64,000 bases of DNA from Candidatus Poribacteria bacterium (GTDB lineage Bacteria > Poribacteria > WGA-4E > WGA-3G), in the NCBI GenBank assembly GCA_965220325.1, contig OZ244821.1:4381924-4445923 (forward strand). The letters run 5' to 3'. The translations under genes were made by a program, and so were the position numbers. The first letter of the stretch is position 1. Every line of letters begins with the position of its first letter. Below are positions 27,335 to 44,245 of this stretch, one piece after another. A model generated the notes under the pieces. That model had not been told where the DNA came from and did not search any database. It saw only the letters and a list, made by a program, of their open reading frames with translations.

Positions 27335-27934
27335 TTATTGATACAACCGATGCCGATGAATATAATTTTCGACTTTTTCTGGAACGAGATATCGGATTGA
27401 GAGCCGGTTCCGAACGCGTTCACGAATCGCTGTTGCGGATATATCCACACCGGTTACTGGGAATGTTGTGACCCGCTTTCGAACTTCCAAAGGTACTCGG
27501 TTGAGATCATAATTCGGACGTGTCGTCGCGATCATAATACACCGCGCTAAGACCTCATCAAAGTCCCTCCAGACTTTATACTCAATGAGCGAATCCGCCC
27601 CGATGATCCATGCCAGTTCCGTCATTTCTCCATAAAGTCTCTGCAATGCTTTTAGAGTCTCCACGGTATAAGAGGGTCCGGCGCGCTCCAATTCTATCCG
27701 AGACACCTCAAAGTATGGATTCCCAATAATCGCCAAGAGTGCCATCTGATACCGCTGCTCCGGTTCGATAATATTGGCATCTGCGACTTTGTGTGGTGGT
27801 CTGGCGGAAGGGATAAACAATATTTTATCGTAACCTAATCCGACGCGGACCTGTTCGGCACTCAGTAGGTGTGCATAATGGATTGGGTTGAATGTTCCGC
27901 CCATCACAGCAATTCTTTGGTTTGTTTTCAGCAT
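27335..27934 (-). CDS. nadD: Nicotinate-nucleotide adenylyltransferase
   Basis: MGGTFNPIHYAHL ((H/T)xGH motif); 199 aa. Confidence 0.85.
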   Translation of the reverse strand: MLKTNQRIAVMGGTFNPIHYAHLLSAEQVRVGLGYDKILFIPSARPPHKVADANIIEPEQRYQMALLAIIGNPYFEVSRIELERAGPSYTVETLKALQRLYGEMTELAWIIGADSLIEYKVWRDFDEVLARCIMIATTRPNYDLNRVPLEVRKRVTTFPVTGVDISATAIRERVRNRLSIRYLVPEKVENYIHRHRLYQ

Positions 27935-39969: not shown

Positions 39970-40010
39970 TGTTCCTGTTTTCTATGAAGGGATAATCAAC
40001 TCGGGTTGTC

Positions 40011-40664
40011 TTACGGCAAAGAGGTGCCTTCTTGAATTCTTGCCCGAATTCCAGCGATAAGCGTCTGTAATGCAACCGGATTTTCGTCTTGAAATGGGAT
40101 AACGAGGTCTGCGTACTGTTTGCAAGGTTCCGTATAGACGGGGAAGTTGGGTAAGACATCACGCCGGTACCAGTTGATTGCCCACTCCAAGTCGCCGCCG
40201 CGTTGGGCGACATCCCGGAGCATCCGTCGTAGAACTCTCTCATGTGCATCGACATCAAGGAAAAGTTTAATGTCCATCAAATCGCGGAGGTCTTCACTCC
40301 AGAAGATGAGGTGTCCTTCCACAATGACGACATCACTCGGTTGAACGCTTGTCTTTTCGTCGCCGCGTTGGGCGCCACGGGTGCCTGGAGTAGGGACATC
40401 AATAGTATCTCGCGAGCGTAGTTTTTTGATGTCCGTAATGAGTGCCTCCCAAAGAACAGCGTTCGGATGATTCGCGGTAATCACACGTTCGCGTTCTGCC
40501 TCTGAGTATTCCGACCAGTCGCGGAAATAGGAATCTTGATTGAGTACAACAGGCGAAAAATCCGAGAGTTCTTCCGCCAACGCCCTGGCAAATGTCGTTT
40601 TCCCAGAGGCGGAACCGCCCATAATTCCGACAGTGATGGGCGTGAAATGTTTATTTTCTTGCAT
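40011..40664 (-). CDS. Uridine kinase / phosphoribulokinase-family P-loop kinase
   Basis: Walker A GIMGGSASGKTT and the family length (217 aa). Confidence 0.65.
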   Translation of the reverse strand: MQENKHFTPITVGIMGGSASGKTTFARALAEELSDFSPVVLNQDSYFRDWSEYSEAERERVITANHPNAVLWEALITDIKKLRSRDTIDVPTPGTRGAQRGDEKTSVQPSDVVIVEGHLIFWSEDLRDLMDIKLFLDVDAHERVLRRMLRDVAQRGGDLEWAINWYRRDVLPNFPVYTEPCKQYADLVIPFQDENPVALQTLIAGIRARIQEGTSLP

Positions 40665-40767
40665 AGGTTCTCCGTCTATATTCTGTTGTCGAATTTAGAT
40701 TTTGTATGTTAGCATATTTCGGGTTGCGTGTCAAACCTATTTTGCCGCTTCGGAAAAAGAAATTTGA

Positions 40768-40797
40768 CTTGCAAAAAAAAATGTGTTATCATATATT
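40768..40797 (+). promoter_or_regulatory. Sigma-70-like promoter (TTGACT - 17 nt - TATCAT) driving a ~540-nt leader of the DAHP synthase gene
   Basis: ttgacttgcaaaaaaaaatgtgttatcat. Confidence 0.45.
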
Positions 40798-41058
40798 AAA
40801 GTTAGCAACACTGACACAGTTTAACAACATATAAACGTTTTTTTGCAAATAACGTCTTAATAGCATAGGTTGCTTTCGAGACGTTGTGGGTAAGTTTCTT
40901 ACGGATCCAATTTTGAGAATTTGATGATGCAAACGCTTGAACGCAATACCATCACAACACAAATGACCGTTGTAGGGAGCGTCTATAACCTGCCTCTCTA
41001 CGTGTGGACTCTTTTTAGGCAGCTTGCAAGCAGCAGTTTGCTGTTAAAAGGTGTGTTT

Positions 41059-41109
41059 GTGTATTATCTTTATCTGTACTTATATTTGTACAGCAACGAT
41101 AGGTGGTGA
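41059..41109 (+). CDS. Candidate Tyr-rich leader peptide (minimal form fM/V-YYLYLYLYLY-SNDRW; the ORF-track version is 62 aa from 40921)
   Basis: Six Tyr codons alternate with four different Leu codons (gtg tat tat ctt tat ctg tac tta tat ttg tac). The SD-like AAAAGGTG lies 5 nt before the GTG at 41059; the stop TGA is at 41107-41109. Confidence 0.45.
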   Translation: MYYLYLYLYLYSNDRW

Positions 41110-41162
41110 GCATTCAAAGGCGATGCCTCAGATTGTATGACGAACCGACCTCATGATCACCA

Positions 41163-41203
41163 CCCAGCGTTGAAAATAGTTTCGATGTTGGGTTATTTTT
41201 TTT
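41163..41203 (+). terminator. Rho-independent terminator (attenuator candidate) between the leader ORF and the DAHP synthase gene
   Basis: RNA stem CCCAGCGUUG / CGAUGUUGGG (10 bp including 3 G-U pairs) followed by UUAUUUUUUUU. Confidence 0.5.
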
Positions 41204-41341
41204 AACCGAGTTTGATTTGGGACAGATAGAGTTACTTTTCGGTGCAGCTTGCAACAGTGGGTTCCCACCCATTACTGGGAAGCGGGGTCCCCACTCGCTA
41301 CCGGGAAGGGACTAAATTGGCTATTGAAAAGGCGGAGGTAA

Positions 41342-42367
41342 TTGAAAAGCATGGTAATCGTTACCAAGACCGATGCGACACAGGCAGATATTGATGCTGT
41401 TGTCAAACGGATCGAAGGTGTTGGACTCAAAGCAGAGGTCTCAACTGGTGAACGGCACACTGTCATCGGTGTCATAGGAGATAAAACATTGCTTGGTGAT
41501 ATTCCGATAGAGTCGATGTCCGGTGTTGAACGGACAATGCCGATTACAGCACCGTTTAAATTAGCGAGTCGCGAATTCCGGGATGAATCGACGGTTATTG
41601 CAGTTAACGGCACGAAAATTGGTGGAAAGGAGCTGCCGGTTATCGCGGGCCCGTGTGCGGTAGAGAGTACTGAGCAAATTGTAACCATTGCTCGCCTCGT
41701 TCAAAAAAGCGGCGCGAGTTTCATCAGAGGTGGTGCCTTTAAACCGAGAACGGGTCCCTATAGTTTCCAAGGGTATGGTGAGAGTGCTCTTAAAATGCTA
41801 AAAGCGGCGAAAGACGAAACTGGACTCGGCATTGTTACGGAAGTTATGACACCGGACGAAGTGGAACTTGTTGGTGAATATACAGATATGTTCCAACTCG
41901 GGACCCGTAACATGACGAATTTTTACCTACTACGCGAAGTGGGACGTGCACGGAAACCTGTAATCCTCAAACGTGGCATGTCTTCGACCATTGAAGAGTG
42001 GCTGCTCGCTGCGGAGTATATCCTCTCCGAAGGAAACCGTGATGTGATTCTCTGTGAACGCGGCATTCGTACTTTTGAACCGCACACACGTAACACGCTC
42101 GACTTGAACGCGGTCCCCGTTATACACGAATTAAGCCATCTTCCGATCATCGTAGATCCGAGCCACGGCACCGGTATCCGAAGCCTCGTGTGTGATATGG
42201 CAAAAGCATCTGTCGCTGCAGGTGCTGATGGGCTGCTACTCGAAGTACACCACGATCCCGATCATTCTATGACAGGAGATGGTGCTCAGTCGCTGTTCCC
42301 AGATCAATTTGAGACACTGATGCGGGAACTGAAACCGATTGCTATCGCTGTCGGTCGTGAAATCTAA
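41342..42367 (+). CDS. aroG: 3-deoxy-7-phosphoheptulonate (DAHP) synthase, type I-beta, with N-terminal regulatory domain
   Basis: KPRTGPYSFQGYGESALKMLKAAKDETGLGIVTEVM...ILCERGIRTFE...IVDPSHG. Confidence 0.9.
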   Translation: MKSMVIVTKTDATQADIDAVVKRIEGVGLKAEVSTGERHTVIGVIGDKTLLGDIPIESMSGVERTMPITAPFKLASREFRDESTVIAVNGTKIGGKELPVIAGPCAVESTEQIVTIARLVQKSGASFIRGGAFKPRTGPYSFQGYGESALKMLKAAKDETGLGIVTEVMTPDEVELVGEYTDMFQLGTRNMTNFYLLREVGRARKPVILKRGMSSTIEEWLLAAEYILSEGNRDVILCERGIRTFEPHTRNTLDLNAVPVIHELSHLPIIVDPSHGTGIRSLVCDMAKASVAAGADGLLLEVHHDPDHSMTGDGAQSLFPDQFETLMRELKPIAIAVGREI

Positions 42368-42373
42368 GGAATA

Positions 42374-42408
42374 GTTATAAGTTATAAGTTATAAGTTATA
42401 AGTTAATC
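42374..42408. repeat. Tandem heptamer (GTTATAA) x5
   Basis: gttataagttataagttataagttataagttaa. Confidence 0.7.
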
Positions 42409-42504
42409 TCTTGTGGTAGGCGATTGTGTTGTGGTATCCACAGCAGCCCTGAATACCACAACAAAGTATCTTATAACTGTTAACTGTTAACTAACAACTA
42501 TTCC

Positions 42505-42560
42505 CCTGACGACTGAAAGGTTTTTTGGCAGAAAAAACCGCACTGACAACTGATAACTAA
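42505..42560. repeat. Intergenic repeat, left copy, carrying the hairpin GGTTTTTT-ggcag-AAAAAACC; inverted partner at 44140-44195
   Basis: The reverse complement of aaaggttttttggcagaaaaaaccgcactgacaactgataact closely matches gttgtcagttatcagttcggtttttctgcgaaaaaccttt downstream of leuA. Confidence 0.5.
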
Positions 42561-42577: not shown

Positions 42578-44131
42578 TTGGACGATTTTGAAAAGAATCA
42601 ACAGAAAATCTATATTTTTGATACAACGCTCCGTGACGCTGAGCAGACCCCCGGTGCTGCCCTTGGTATCGGGGAGAAACTCGAAATTGCCAAGCACCTC
42701 GCCAGATTAAATGTTGATGTCATTGAAGCCGGGTTCCCGATTTCGTCACCGGGCGATTTTGAGGCTGTCAAACAGATAGCAAATGAAGTTGAAGGACCGG
42801 AAATTTGTGCCCTCTCTCGCGTCGTTGAGAAAGACATTACTGCCGCGTGGAAAGCCATTGAAGATGCACCGCGGGCACGTATCCACACGTTTGTCGGGAC
42901 TTCACCGATTCACATGGGACGCATCACTCGGACGACACCAGAGGATACGCTCCGGATGGCGACCGATGCTGTTGCTTATGCGAAGAGTCTCTGTGAAGGT
43001 CACCCGGATGCGAATGTAGAATTTTCACCGATGGATGCGGGGCGGACAGAATTGGCGTTTCTCTATGAAGTCGTTGAAGCGACAATTGCTGCAGGCGCGA
43101 CGGTTATTAATATTCCAGAGACCGTCGGGTGGACAGTCCCGACAGAATTCGGTAACCTCATTAGAAGCATTATGGAGAATGTCCCGAATGTCAATGATGC
43201 CATTATTAGTGTCCACTGTCATAACGATCTCGGCTTGGCAGTAGCGAATAGTCTCATCGCGGTTGAGCAAGGTGCGCGTCAGGTGGAATGCACGATCAAC
43301 GGACTCGGAGAACGGGCTGGAAATACCTCACTTGAAGAGGTCGTCATGGCGATTCGAACGCGACGTGACTATTTCAAAAGTTATTACACCGAGATTAACG
43401 CGAAGGAGATTGTCCCGATTAGTAGACGGGTTAGCCGTACGATGGGCATTTCTGTGCAACCGAACAAAGCGATTGTCGGTGCGAATGCCTTCGCTCATAG
43501 TTCCGGCATCCATCAGGACGGTATCATAAAATCGCGTGTAACGTTTGAAATCATTGATCCGCAAGAGATCGGTTGGAAAGAGAGTCAACTGGTCCTCAGT
43601 CCGCGTTCGGGACGCAATGCCCTCAGGCATCGGCTCAGTGAACTCGGTTATGAAGTAGAAGGGGAGCAGTTAGACAAGGTTTATGAACGGTTCCTGAAGG
43701 TCGCAGATAAGAAGAAGTCGATACAAGACGCTGATCTTGAGGCGATCATGAGCGACGAGATTCGGGCGATTCCTGCTGTCTTTGAACTCGACTATATCCA
43801 AGTCGTCAGCGGAACGAAAATTTCGCCAACAACGACAGTCGGCATTCGGACAGAAGAAGGGGTCGTTGAGAAAGCGTCCACTGGTGATGGGCCCGTTGAC
43901 GCGGCGTTTAAAGCGATCGGTCAAATTGTTGACATTCAGTTGAACCTTGTTGATTATCAAATCCGTTCCGTAACCGAAGGCGAAGACGCTATCGGTGAAG
44001 TCTCATTAAAGGTCCAGGACAACGGACATATTATCACGGGGCACGGTGCGAGTACAGACATCATTGAAGCGAGTGCACGCGCTTATATCCATGCTGTTAA
44101 TAAACTGATTCAGATCCGATCTGAAGGGTAA
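42578..44131 (+). CDS. leuA: 2-isopropylmalate synthase
   Basis: IFDTTLRDAEQTPGA, HCHNDLGLAVANS and the C-terminal LeuA dimerisation domain. Start set to the TTG at 42578, 7 nt after GGAGGA; the ORF-track start at 42563 overlaps the SD. Confidence 0.9.
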   Translation: MDDFEKNQQKIYIFDTTLRDAEQTPGAALGIGEKLEIAKHLARLNVDVIEAGFPISSPGDFEAVKQIANEVEGPEICALSRVVEKDITAAWKAIEDAPRARIHTFVGTSPIHMGRITRTTPEDTLRMATDAVAYAKSLCEGHPDANVEFSPMDAGRTELAFLYEVVEATIAAGATVINIPETVGWTVPTEFGNLIRSIMENVPNVNDAIISVHCHNDLGLAVANSLIAVEQGARQVECTINGLGERAGNTSLEEVVMAIRTRRDYFKSYYTEINAKEIVPISRRVSRTMGISVQPNKAIVGANAFAHSSGIHQDGIIKSRVTFEIIDPQEIGWKESQLVLSPRSGRNALRHRLSELGYEVEGEQLDKVYERFLKVADKKKSIQDADLEAIMSDEIRAIPAVFELDYIQVVSGTKISPTTTVGIRTEEGVVEKASTGDGPVDAAFKAIGQIVDIQLNLVDYQIRSVTEGEDAIGEVSLKVQDNGHIITGHGASTDIIEASARAYIHAVNKLIQIRSEG

Positions 44132-44139
44132 TAGTTGTC

Positions 44140-44195
44140 GGCGGAATGGTTGTCAGTTATCAGTTCGGTTTTTCTGCGAAAAACCTTTAGTTCTC
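44140..44195. repeat. Intergenic repeat, right copy (inverted orientation relative to 42505-42560)
   Basis: See the left copy; it contains GGTTTTTC-tgc-GAAAAACC. Confidence 0.5.
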
Positions 44196-44245
44196 AGTTA
44201 CAAGAGATCTATTAACCGATAACTGATAACTGGCAACCCTTAAAT

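Follow-up and report, generated by a model that had tools for sequence, protein, structure and literature searches.

A candidate leader-peptide transcription attenuator with tyrosine and leucine codons upstream of DAHP synthase and leuA in Candidatus Poribacteria

Introduction

In a 64-kb stretch of the genome of the sponge symbiont Candidatus Poribacteria, a gene for 3-deoxy-D-arabino-heptulosonate 7-phosphate (DAHP) synthase is preceded by a leader of ~550 nt that carries an open reading frame (ORF) rich in tyrosine codons and, behind its stop codon, a terminator-like hairpin. A first-pass annotation had read this arrangement as a candidate tyrosine-sensing transcription attenuator, and the question raised by the locus is whether the leader is an attenuator at all and, if it is, which signal it would read. 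The whole 64-kb stretch, referred to here as the window, served as the reference; all positions are window coordinates, and features lie on the plus strand unless stated otherwise. A genome scan with the window's synthase protein returned 80 further loci, giving n = 81 with the window; all of those with a taxon name are Candidatus Poribacteria, two are labelled only as uncultured bacterium, and the DAHP synthases of the 80 genomes are 83-97% identical to the window protein. Covariation was tested on an 81-sequence alignment (A1), and subsets of the 81 loci were used for the other analyses: 77 in which the ORF was typed by script, 74 for the family-wide residue profile, 51 from the window's clade for the codon columns, and 76 for the tests of a candidate segment 1 described below.

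The same layout is common to 80/80 relatives, namely a strong promoter, a leader ORF, an aromatic core, an intrinsic terminator, and then a Thermotoga-type DAHP synthase. We put the probability at roughly three in four that the element is a ribosome-mediated (leader-peptide) transcription attenuator of a two-gene operon, DAHP synthase-leuA, in Poribacteria, an assessment that draws on sequence comparison and on folding models. The observation in the first-pass annotation is confirmed and its interpretation is supported, with the start codon and the antiterminator strand corrected.

Results

Terminator and antiterminator

An intrinsic terminator occupies positions 41162-41203, where a stem of 14 pairs, ACCCAGCGUUGAAA/UUUCGAUGUUGGGU (41162-41175 with 41180-41193), closes an AUAG loop and is followed by the tail UAUUUUUUUU (41194-41203); the hairpin and U-tract previously reported after the ORF stop codon are thus both present. 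The calculated energy of this hairpin is -17.9 kcal/mol, and that of the competing domain described next is -26.3 kcal/mol. It is the only terminator-like site between positions 40000 and 43000 and is unique in the 64-kb window. A terminator of the form CCCAGCGU[U/C]GA..UCGAUGUUGGG plus a U-run stands upstream of the synthase in 81/81 loci, and in the alignment 93% of its cells are paired, with four compensated pairs; one locus (L064) has a different stem that is fully compensated.

If folding is done without the 3' arm of the terminator, the window leader pairs CAACGAUAGGUGGUGA (segment 2, 41094-41109) with UCACCACCCAGCGUUG (segment 3, 41157-41172), the latter overlapping the 5' arm of the terminator from position 41162, so that segment 2 is the 5' strand and segment 3 the 3' strand of an antiterminator. 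Across the 81 sequences 95.8% of the cells of this helix are paired, and five pairs are changed on both sides, in 44 cells altogether; examples of such two-sided change are a pair that is AU in 40 sequences and GC in 28, and another that is UA in 50 and CG in 13. The covariation score was reached by none of 500 shuffles, and sliding the partner strand reduces pairing to 28-70%. RNAalifold independently recovers both the terminator and the GGUG/CACC helix of the antiterminator, and in minimum-energy folds at least 10 of the 14 antiterminator pairs appear in 74/81 truncated leaders, while the terminator appears in 78/81 full-length ones. The 47 nt that separate segments 2 and 3 (41110-41156) are the least conserved part of the alignment. 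The parts of the element, their conservation, and its alternative, covarying pairings are in this way shown by computation.

The first-pass annotation had called for an alternative pairing between the tyrosine codons and the 5' arm of the terminator. A mutually exclusive and covarying alternative does exist, although its 5' strand consists of the S-N-D-R-W codons and the stop codon and not of the tyrosine codons; folding and covariation both pick the 16 nt that follow the Tyr run, and an antiterminator built from the Tyr codons themselves was rejected. A weak UAUUAUCU/AGGUGGUG pairing found in one fold was likewise set aside, as it is not conserved. Two loci (L044 and L080) carry a UGG to UAG change in segment 2, which moves the stop codon one codon earlier, and 0/14 antiterminator pairs are predicted for them; the change in L044 remains paired with candidate segment 1.

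The stop codon of the leader ORF forms the last 3 nt of segment 2. In a constrained-fold model with a ribosome footprint placed at the stop codon, the terminator alone forms. With the A site placed instead at 41062, 41071, 41077, 41083, or 41089, the model leaves 13, 12, 12, 11, and 8, respectively, of the 16 aligned positions of segments 2 and 3 paired.

The leader ORF and its codons

The leader ORF extends from 40927 to 41109 and comprises 60 codons and a TGA stop (MQTLERNTITTQMTVVGSVYNLPLYVWTLFRQLASSSLLLKGVFVYYLYLYLYLYSNDRW). Its ATG is conserved in 81/81 loci and is preceded by 9 nt by a weak Shine-Dalgarno (SD)-like GAGAA (40915-40919), which is replaced by AGGA at the same position in relatives (start contexts of 77 loci). 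The frame is open in 81/81 loci, and it contains no internal stop in 77/77 typed loci, where the other two frames contain a mean of 1.7 and 2.3. The peptide begins with the pattern M-[QR]-[TK]-[LF]-E-[RH]-[NT]-T, and its length falls into 15 classes of 41-84 codons (77 loci). An in-frame GTG at 41059, with AAAAGGTG (41046-41053) 5 nt before it, had been suggested as the start of a 16-residue mini-ORF; the GTG and its upstream box are there as described, but only in the 22 closest of the 77 typed loci, and it was rejected as the family start in favor of ATG 40927, which is conserved family-wide and gives a peptide of ~60 residues.

In the window the ORF ends V-Y-Y-L-Y-L-Y-L-Y-L-Y-S-N-D-R-W-stop (TGA at 41107-41109), with six Tyr in 11 residues, four different Leu codons (CTT, CTG, TTA, and TTG), and a terminal Trp, exactly as first noted. 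The control codons, YYLYLYLYLY, span 41062-41091, with Tyr at 41062, 41065, 41071, 41077, 41083, and 41089 and Leu at 41068, 41074, 41080, and 41086. Searching for runs of Tyr brought out ...YLYLYLY..RW* in 52 loci, and the remaining loci have a homologous ORF that ends ...LGLYPFLYCGGRW* or ...GVYLYLYLGRGW... The family as a whole shares a near-invariant core, L-Y-[L/P]-[Y/F]-L-Y-x3-R-W-stop. Numbered from the Arg as 0, the 74-locus profile of this core has L at -9 in 69, Y at -8 in 71, L or P at -7, Y or F at -6 in all 74, L at -5 in 56, and Y at -4 in 72 loci, and it ends with R in 65, K in 6, or G in 3 loci, followed by W in 74/74. A Tyr-rich ORF accordingly stands upstream of every Poribacteria DAHP synthase examined, as the conservation check proposed earlier would have it. 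The number of Y-L units varies from three to six across species, and in one leader (L006) 12 codons (the LASKNLLLKSAQ unit) are duplicated in frame.

The codon columns of the 51 window-clade loci separate two kinds of constraint. Four Tyr columns are invariant as residues in 51/51 loci and mix TAT with TAC (26:25 in one column), so that changes in Tyr codons are synonymous only, and the Leu columns use up to five synonymous codons, whereas the Arg before the stop is always AGG and the Trp always TGG. Tyr and Leu thus appear to be selected as codon identities and Arg-Trp as RNA, and this contrast matches what a leader peptide predicts. In the window's clade Tyr accounts for 32.6% of the last 16 leader codons, compared with 3.1% in long ORFs of the window, and Leu for 25%, compared with a background of 9.4%. 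Window folds also contain a hairpin within the Tyr/Leu run itself (41074-41093, CUGUAC-N8-GUACAG); in 47-49 of the 51 loci its arms are built from codons with a final G, and it may act as an RNA polymerase pause or coupling hairpin.

A candidate segment 1

Near the start of the ORF, codons 7-9 contain UACCAUC (40947-40953), which is complementary to GGUGGUG in segment 2 and could act as an anti-antiterminator. In folds of the transcript before segment 3 has been made, at least 5 of the 9 nt of AGGUGGUGA pair with ORF nucleotides +10 to +40 in 67/76 loci, compared with 35% after shuffling of that stretch, and the 6-bp core of segment 1 is paired in 95.4% of cells, compared with 37-43% when it is slid by 1-2 nt. 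Variation in the core is mostly compatible with pairing (C or U opposite G, A or G opposite U), and few cells are unpaired. When the duplex energy between the N-terminal region and the segment 2 region is set against dinucleotide shuffles, the median z is -0.83, and 17/76 loci fall below -2. Such a segment would explain the conservation of the N-terminus and would make untranslated transcripts terminate.

Promoter and 5' untranslated region

A sigma-70-type promoter lies at 40764-40792, with a -35 box TTGACT (40764-40769), a 17-nt spacer, and an extended -10 box TG-n-TATCAT (40784-40792). It scores 10/12, is the top promoter-like site of the region, and would place the transcription start near 40799; TTGAC-N16-18-TAnnnT is found upstream of the leader ORF in 74/77 relatives. 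The promoter was earlier assigned to 40768-40797; a promoter is indeed present here, while those coordinates describe an overlapping weaker match (TTGCAA/TATATT, 9/12). A uridine kinase/PRK-family gene (40011-40664, minus strand) diverges from the leader, and its own promoter-like site (TTGACA-17-TAACAT, 40734-40706) lies ~30 nt (29 bp) from the leader -35 box, so that the two promoters stand back to back.

Alignments of the 5' untranslated region (UTR) of both clades show a conserved element at 40833-40887, which includes the palindrome AAACGTTT (40833-40840) and TAACGTCTTA (40850-40859), the latter pairing with GAGACGTTG as the 5' arm of a hairpin in the predicted leader fold. The AAACGTTT palindrome and a nearby TAACGT(C/T)TT box, at about +35 to +60 from the presumed start, are kept in every Poribacteria clade, even where the remainder of the UTR is no longer alignable. 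The element could stabilize the transcript as a 5' hairpin, or it could serve a DNA-binding repressor as its operator, with a core that resembles LacI/PurR-type sites; in the latter case it would provide a further level of regulation. No structure emerged when the gappy alignments of the 5' UTR and ORF start were folded to a consensus.

DAHP synthase and leuA

Enzymes of the Thermotoga maritima type are feedback-inhibited by tyrosine. The gene behind the leader (ATG 41351 to stop 42367, with a GGAGG SD at 41334-41338) encodes a DAHP synthase of this type, type I-beta with an N-terminal ferredoxin-like regulatory domain, as judged by Pfam (PF00793, 2.8e-74; PF18152, 2.8e-20) and by its closest solved structure (T. 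maritima 1RZM/3PG9, E = 1.9e-100), in agreement with its first description as the initial enzyme of the aromatic pathway. The next gene is leuA, for 2-isopropylmalate synthase (42578-44131; HMGL-like, LeuA_dimer, and HCS_D2 domains), whose likely start is TTG 42578 after a GGAGG, although the ORF list gives 42563. It follows the synthase directly in 80/81 loci, the 81st being truncated; the spacer contains no strict terminator in any locus, and in some species the LeuA FDTTLRD motif begins ~54 nt after the synthase stop, leaving almost no spacer. The gene after leuA lies on the opposite strand, and the transcription unit would thus consist of the leader, DAHP synthase, and leuA, with leuA probably second in the operon.

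The possibility of a terminator or promoter between the two genes was considered and rejected; the window spacer is a long repeat-built hairpin that lacks a U-tract. An internal promoter for DAHP synthase was rejected as well: the sole match after the leader ORF (41170-41199, 9/12, no TG) sits inside the terminator and, by inspection, is apparently not conserved.

Most loci have ~60 nt between the terminator and the synthase start codon; in the window the distance is 157 nt, and the window therefore carries a lineage-specific insertion of ~100 nt at approximately 41232-41330. This insertion holds two tandem 26-nt units (41259-41308), each forming a small hairpin (UUCCCA..UGGGAA and UCCCC..GGGA), and a weak third copy of the unit is found at 27444-27464. 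The leuA gene is flanked on both sides (42368-42504 and 44145-44241) by inverted repeats of heptad tandem repeats, (AGTTATA)4.7 versus (TAACTGT)2.7 upstream and CAGTTAT versus TAACTGA downstream. Two A/U-rich hairpins of similar kind, GGUUUUUUGGCAGAAAAAACC and GGUUUUUCUGCGAAAAACC, are also present: the one at 42520-42540 follows closely on the first repeat, and the one at 44167-44185 is enclosed by the arms of the second. The repeat upstream of leuA folds far better than shuffles (z = -5.8), the spacer varies widely in length across species, and the repeats look like a family of repetitive extragenic palindromic or miniature inverted-repeat transposable elements.

Discussion

How the switch would work

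The leader has a start codon with a ribosome-binding site, conserved codons for the end product, a terminator, and a covarying antiterminator, the ribosome geometry being a matter of the model only. In the mechanism that we infer from these parts, for translation of the ORF, stalling, and pausing as well as for the identity of the signal and for termination itself, transcription would begin near 40799 and the 60-codon leader would be translated while the rest of the leader is still being made. Segment 3 could then pair either with segment 2, to give the antiterminator, or with segment 4 (41180-41193), to give the terminator. With Tyr-tRNA, and probably Leu-tRNA too, in plentiful supply, the ribosome would reach the UGA and cover segment 2, which would allow the terminator to form and transcription to stop at about 41203. 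Were charged tRNA in short supply, the ribosome would stall on the Tyr/Leu codons (41062-41091), 3-45 nt upstream of segment 2, leaving segment 2 free to pair with segment 3 and permitting read-through into DAHP synthase and leuA. In an untranslated transcript segment 1 (40947-40953) may pair with segment 2 as an anti-antiterminator.

Several observations weigh against this reading, or against one part of it. The upper 8 bp of the antiterminator (GGUGGUGA/UCACCACC) are compatible with the terminator, and since this half can coexist with it, the strictly exclusive part comes to only ~8 bp (CAACG.U.GG versus CC.A.CGUUG). The ORF, at 41-84 codons, is unusually long for a leader peptide, and the conservation of its N-terminus and of a W-A-L-F-T motif is only partly explained. 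In the window the segment 1 duplex has z = -0.02, no better than shuffles in the window's clade, and a ribosome stalled on the Tyr codons would already be ~150 nt past segment 1 and would not mask it as in the trp leader; because of this energy and this distance from the control codons we keep segment 1 as a candidate only. Without it, an untranslated leader is predicted to read through, which differs from classical attenuators. A second, more distant Poribacteria clade has a control region with only two or three Tyr together with Phe and Leu, and "aromatic plus Leu" may be a better label for the family than "Tyr"; indeed, a characterized leader with an F-Y-F core, considered below, responds to Phe and not to Tyr, and codon content is therefore no proof of the signal. 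Finally, every sequence comes from a metagenome-assembled genome of an uncultivated organism.

Alternative readings of the leader

The alternative that survives best concerns the signal. The attenuator may be keyed to Tyr plus Leu and, more broadly, to any slowing of translation along the long ORF. Multivalent leaders exist, those of the E. coli ilvGMEDA operon (Ile/Leu/Val) and thr operon (Thr/Ile) among them. A leader that reads both amino acids would fit what the operon makes, aromatics through DAHP synthase and leucine through LeuA, and bivalent Tyr + Leu attenuation is suggested by the interleaving of Leu together with the linkage to leuA, which is the next gene in 80/81 loci with no terminator in between. 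Within the control region, residues -5, -7, -9, and -11 are Leu in 51-69 of 74 loci, and Leu is kept under free synonymous change, even in the column that falls in the hairpin loop (TTA 30, CTT 11, TTG 4, CTG 3). In Poribacteria the 10-residue stretch richest in aromatics is also 28% Leu, compared with 1% in 15 distant leaders whose operons lack leuA, though this contrast rests on a single Poribacteria origin. The enrichment of Leu is only 2-2.7-fold over background, however, as against ~10-fold for Tyr; the Leu codons form no rare-codon run, and with four different ones in use they call on several tRNA isoacceptors; and the G-ending Leu codons also supply the GUAC palindromes of the hairpin at 41074-41093. 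We regard leucine as a second signal tentatively.

A different use of the same parts would be nascent-peptide arrest of the TnaC type, in which the ...Y-x3-R-W-UGA end and a free amino acid stall release at the stop codon, hold the ribosome on segment 2, and enforce termination when the amino acid is abundant. The R-W-stop sequence is near-invariant (R 65, K 6, G 3 of 74; W 74/74), and a ribosome held at the stop codon would mask segment 2 according to the constrained folds. The AGG and UGG codons show no synonymous or conservative change, however, and lie inside a helix whose partner strand covaries or wobbles, so RNA pairing is enough to explain their invariance, and in several loci the stop codon comes 1-4 codons later (WC*, WCNL*, WCKVR*), which means that a fixed arrest peptide is not kept. 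Arrest is thus very improbable next to attenuation by stalling on the Tyr/Leu codons.

We attach equally little weight to the possibility that the ORF encodes a small functional protein, a partly hydrophobic product of ~60 residues with its own terminator, and that DAHP synthase is transcribed independently. The conserved N-terminus and W-A-L-F-T motif would suit such a product, as would the greater variability of third codon positions in the window's clade (entropy sums of 46.9 versus 38.7 and 30.7 for first and second positions), and action in trans is possible for leader peptides, peTrpL (PMC7298713) among them. The second clade, on the other hand, has no codon-position bias (32.9, 34.9, and 35.1); the ORF ranges from 41 to 84 codons with internal duplications and gain or loss of (YL) units; only ~60 nt separate the terminator from the DAHP synthase start in most loci, and the window contains no promoter-like site between the end of the terminator and that start. 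A small protein would also leave the covarying antiterminator over the stop codon unexplained.

That a riboswitch, a T-box, or a protein-bound element uses the same terminator/antiterminator pair, with the ORF incidental, is a reading to which the length of the leader (~550 nt), a fold more stable than shuffles (z = -3.3), the conserved element in the 5' UTR, and the T-box control of Tyr pathways in Firmicutes (PMC1262725) lend some color, but which is highly unlikely given that Rfam, T-box included, offers no matching family at E up to 10 (40600-41450) or at gathering scores (window), that the least conserved stretch, 41110-41156, leaves no conserved binding pocket evident, and that this reading would account neither for a frame that is kept open, nor for a start codon preceded by an SD box, nor for Tyr codons that change only synonymously. 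The cmscan search of 40600-41450 gave only three noise matches (an FHbp thermometer and two plant microRNAs), the whole window gave none at gathering scores, and the Trp_leader, Phe_leader, Leu_leader, His_leader, Thr_leader, leu/phe-leader, and T-box covariance models gave none either.

Related leaders and significance

Leader-peptide attenuation upstream of DAHP synthases of this class may extend beyond Poribacteria. When the most divergent Poribacteria synthase was used to scan metagenomes, 78 distant loci with 50-58% identity were obtained, of which 66 had enough sequence upstream to be examined. In 27 of these 66, the synthase is immediately preceded by an intrinsic terminator and, ending at most 130 nt before that terminator, an F/Y/W-rich ORF. 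The leaders belong to several unrelated peptide families, for example MDRKLTANNNIYGYWFYTYFALVCPLLRRLW, MNRHSNANTNFFGYWFYYYYASVCLSLGRTW, and MMGRVINLNYWFSYFYFGGSVCPSRMNS, and to our knowledge no Rfam family covers them, the Rfam scans made here having covered the window only. The simple antiterminator layout was obtained by minimum-energy folding in only 7/27, the others being multi-hairpin. These findings suggest that an aromatic-codon upstream ORF (uORF) with a terminator is common before this class of DAHP synthase in environmental bacteria and forms a wider class, of which the Poribacteria element is the Tyr/Leu-coded, long-ORF, leuA-linked form; the distant leaders could be catalogued and used for metagenome annotation. 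The distant loci, with ferredoxin-like-domain DAHP synthases from soil, sediment, and sludge metagenomes, include L092, L103, L105, L114, L115, L117, L123, L131, and L158; several of the leaders end ...VC[PL]x[LR]..R.W-stop, some have tandem hairpins, and leuA follows none of the synthases.

Taken together, one possible but still speculative picture is that the (Tyr-Leu)n leader is a bivalent sensor that co-regulates two committed enzymes, DAHP synthase and 2-isopropylmalate synthase, across Poribacteria, that, with so long an ORF and a segment 1 at its N-terminal end, read-through might hinge on ribosomes queuing as far back as codons 7-9, and that the element is one lineage form of a wider, uncatalogued class of aromatic-codon uORFs before ferredoxin-like-domain DAHP synthases. 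If the element works as proposed, the symbiont would be monitoring how far its own Tyr and Leu tRNAs are charged and producing aromatic amino acids as needed, instead of relying passively on its host; tyrosine would be added to the amino acids read by leader-peptide attenuation, and a single leader would couple an enzyme of the aromatic pathway with one of the leucine pathway. As far as our literature search showed, it would also be the first cis-regulatory RNA described for Poribacteria.

Comparison with known systems

The first-pass annotation had called tyrosine-keyed attenuation of a DAHP synthase gene "not a textbook case," and this holds in part. Attenuation of DAHP synthase genes has precedents, while the literature search turned up neither a Tyr-codon attenuator already described nor any account of attenuation in Poribacteria. 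In Corynebacterium glutamicum the aroR leader peptide has been shown experimentally to attenuate aroF (Neshat et al. 2014, as cited in PMC11802643); according to the same account its core is Phe-Tyr-Phe and it responds to Phe and not to Tyr. The two systems share an aromatic-codon leader peptide that attenuates an operon starting with a DAHP synthase gene, and the likeness is one of function only; aroR belongs to another phylum, has only three aromatic codons and no Leu interleaving, and has no leuA in the operon as described there. The uORFC-13-1 motif upstream of aroF in Acholeplasma, reported by the Breaker laboratory with a predicted Phe-codon uORF (PMC8632094), is similar in being a computationally found uORF with a promoter, a ribosome-binding site, and aromatic codons just before an intrinsic terminator upstream of DAHP synthase. 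It differs in that a U-run codes for at least one Phe, not Tyr/Leu, and in being limited to Acholeplasma and some environmental sequences, and, in a comparison made by description only, no antiterminator overlapping the stop codon is described for it. Attenuators in front of the DAHP synthase genes of several bacteria appear in a published list of predictions made from structure alone (PMC1173090), and a link between tRNA-Tyr and control of aroF-tyrA in E. coli was proposed in 1980 (as cited in PMC2659441). The Tyr T-box of Firmicutes also serves tyrosine-related genes through a terminator/antiterminator choice set by the charging of tRNA-Tyr (PMC1262725), but it binds uncharged tRNA directly and needs no translation, whereas the Poribacteria element has a conserved ORF and no T-box match.

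The ilvGMEDA and thr leaders resemble the Poribacteria leader in that one peptide mixes the codons of several amino acids and a shortage of any of them relieves termination; their amino acids belong to connected pathways, however, whereas the two Poribacteria genes start unrelated ones (aromatic and leucine), where dual sensing would be our inference. The closest parallel in architecture is with the trp, pheA, his, and leu attenuators of E. coli, which likewise combine a promoter-proximal ORF containing codons for the end product, an intrinsic terminator, and an antiterminator that shares one terminator strand, and in which a ribosome that terminates at the stop codon comes to cover the antiterminator strand, the control codons lying 3-45 nt upstream of that strand in Poribacteria. 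The Poribacteria leader departs from them in coding for Tyr alternating with Leu, in the length of its ORF (41-84 codons versus 14-32 in classical leaders), in having its candidate segment 1 near the start of the ORF where the classical segment 1 lies on the control codons, in showing no sequence or Rfam-model similarity to them, and in heading an operon that pairs DAHP synthase with leuA. The mechanism itself is a textbook one, and the element is a new example of this classic form of control that will not surprise a specialist.

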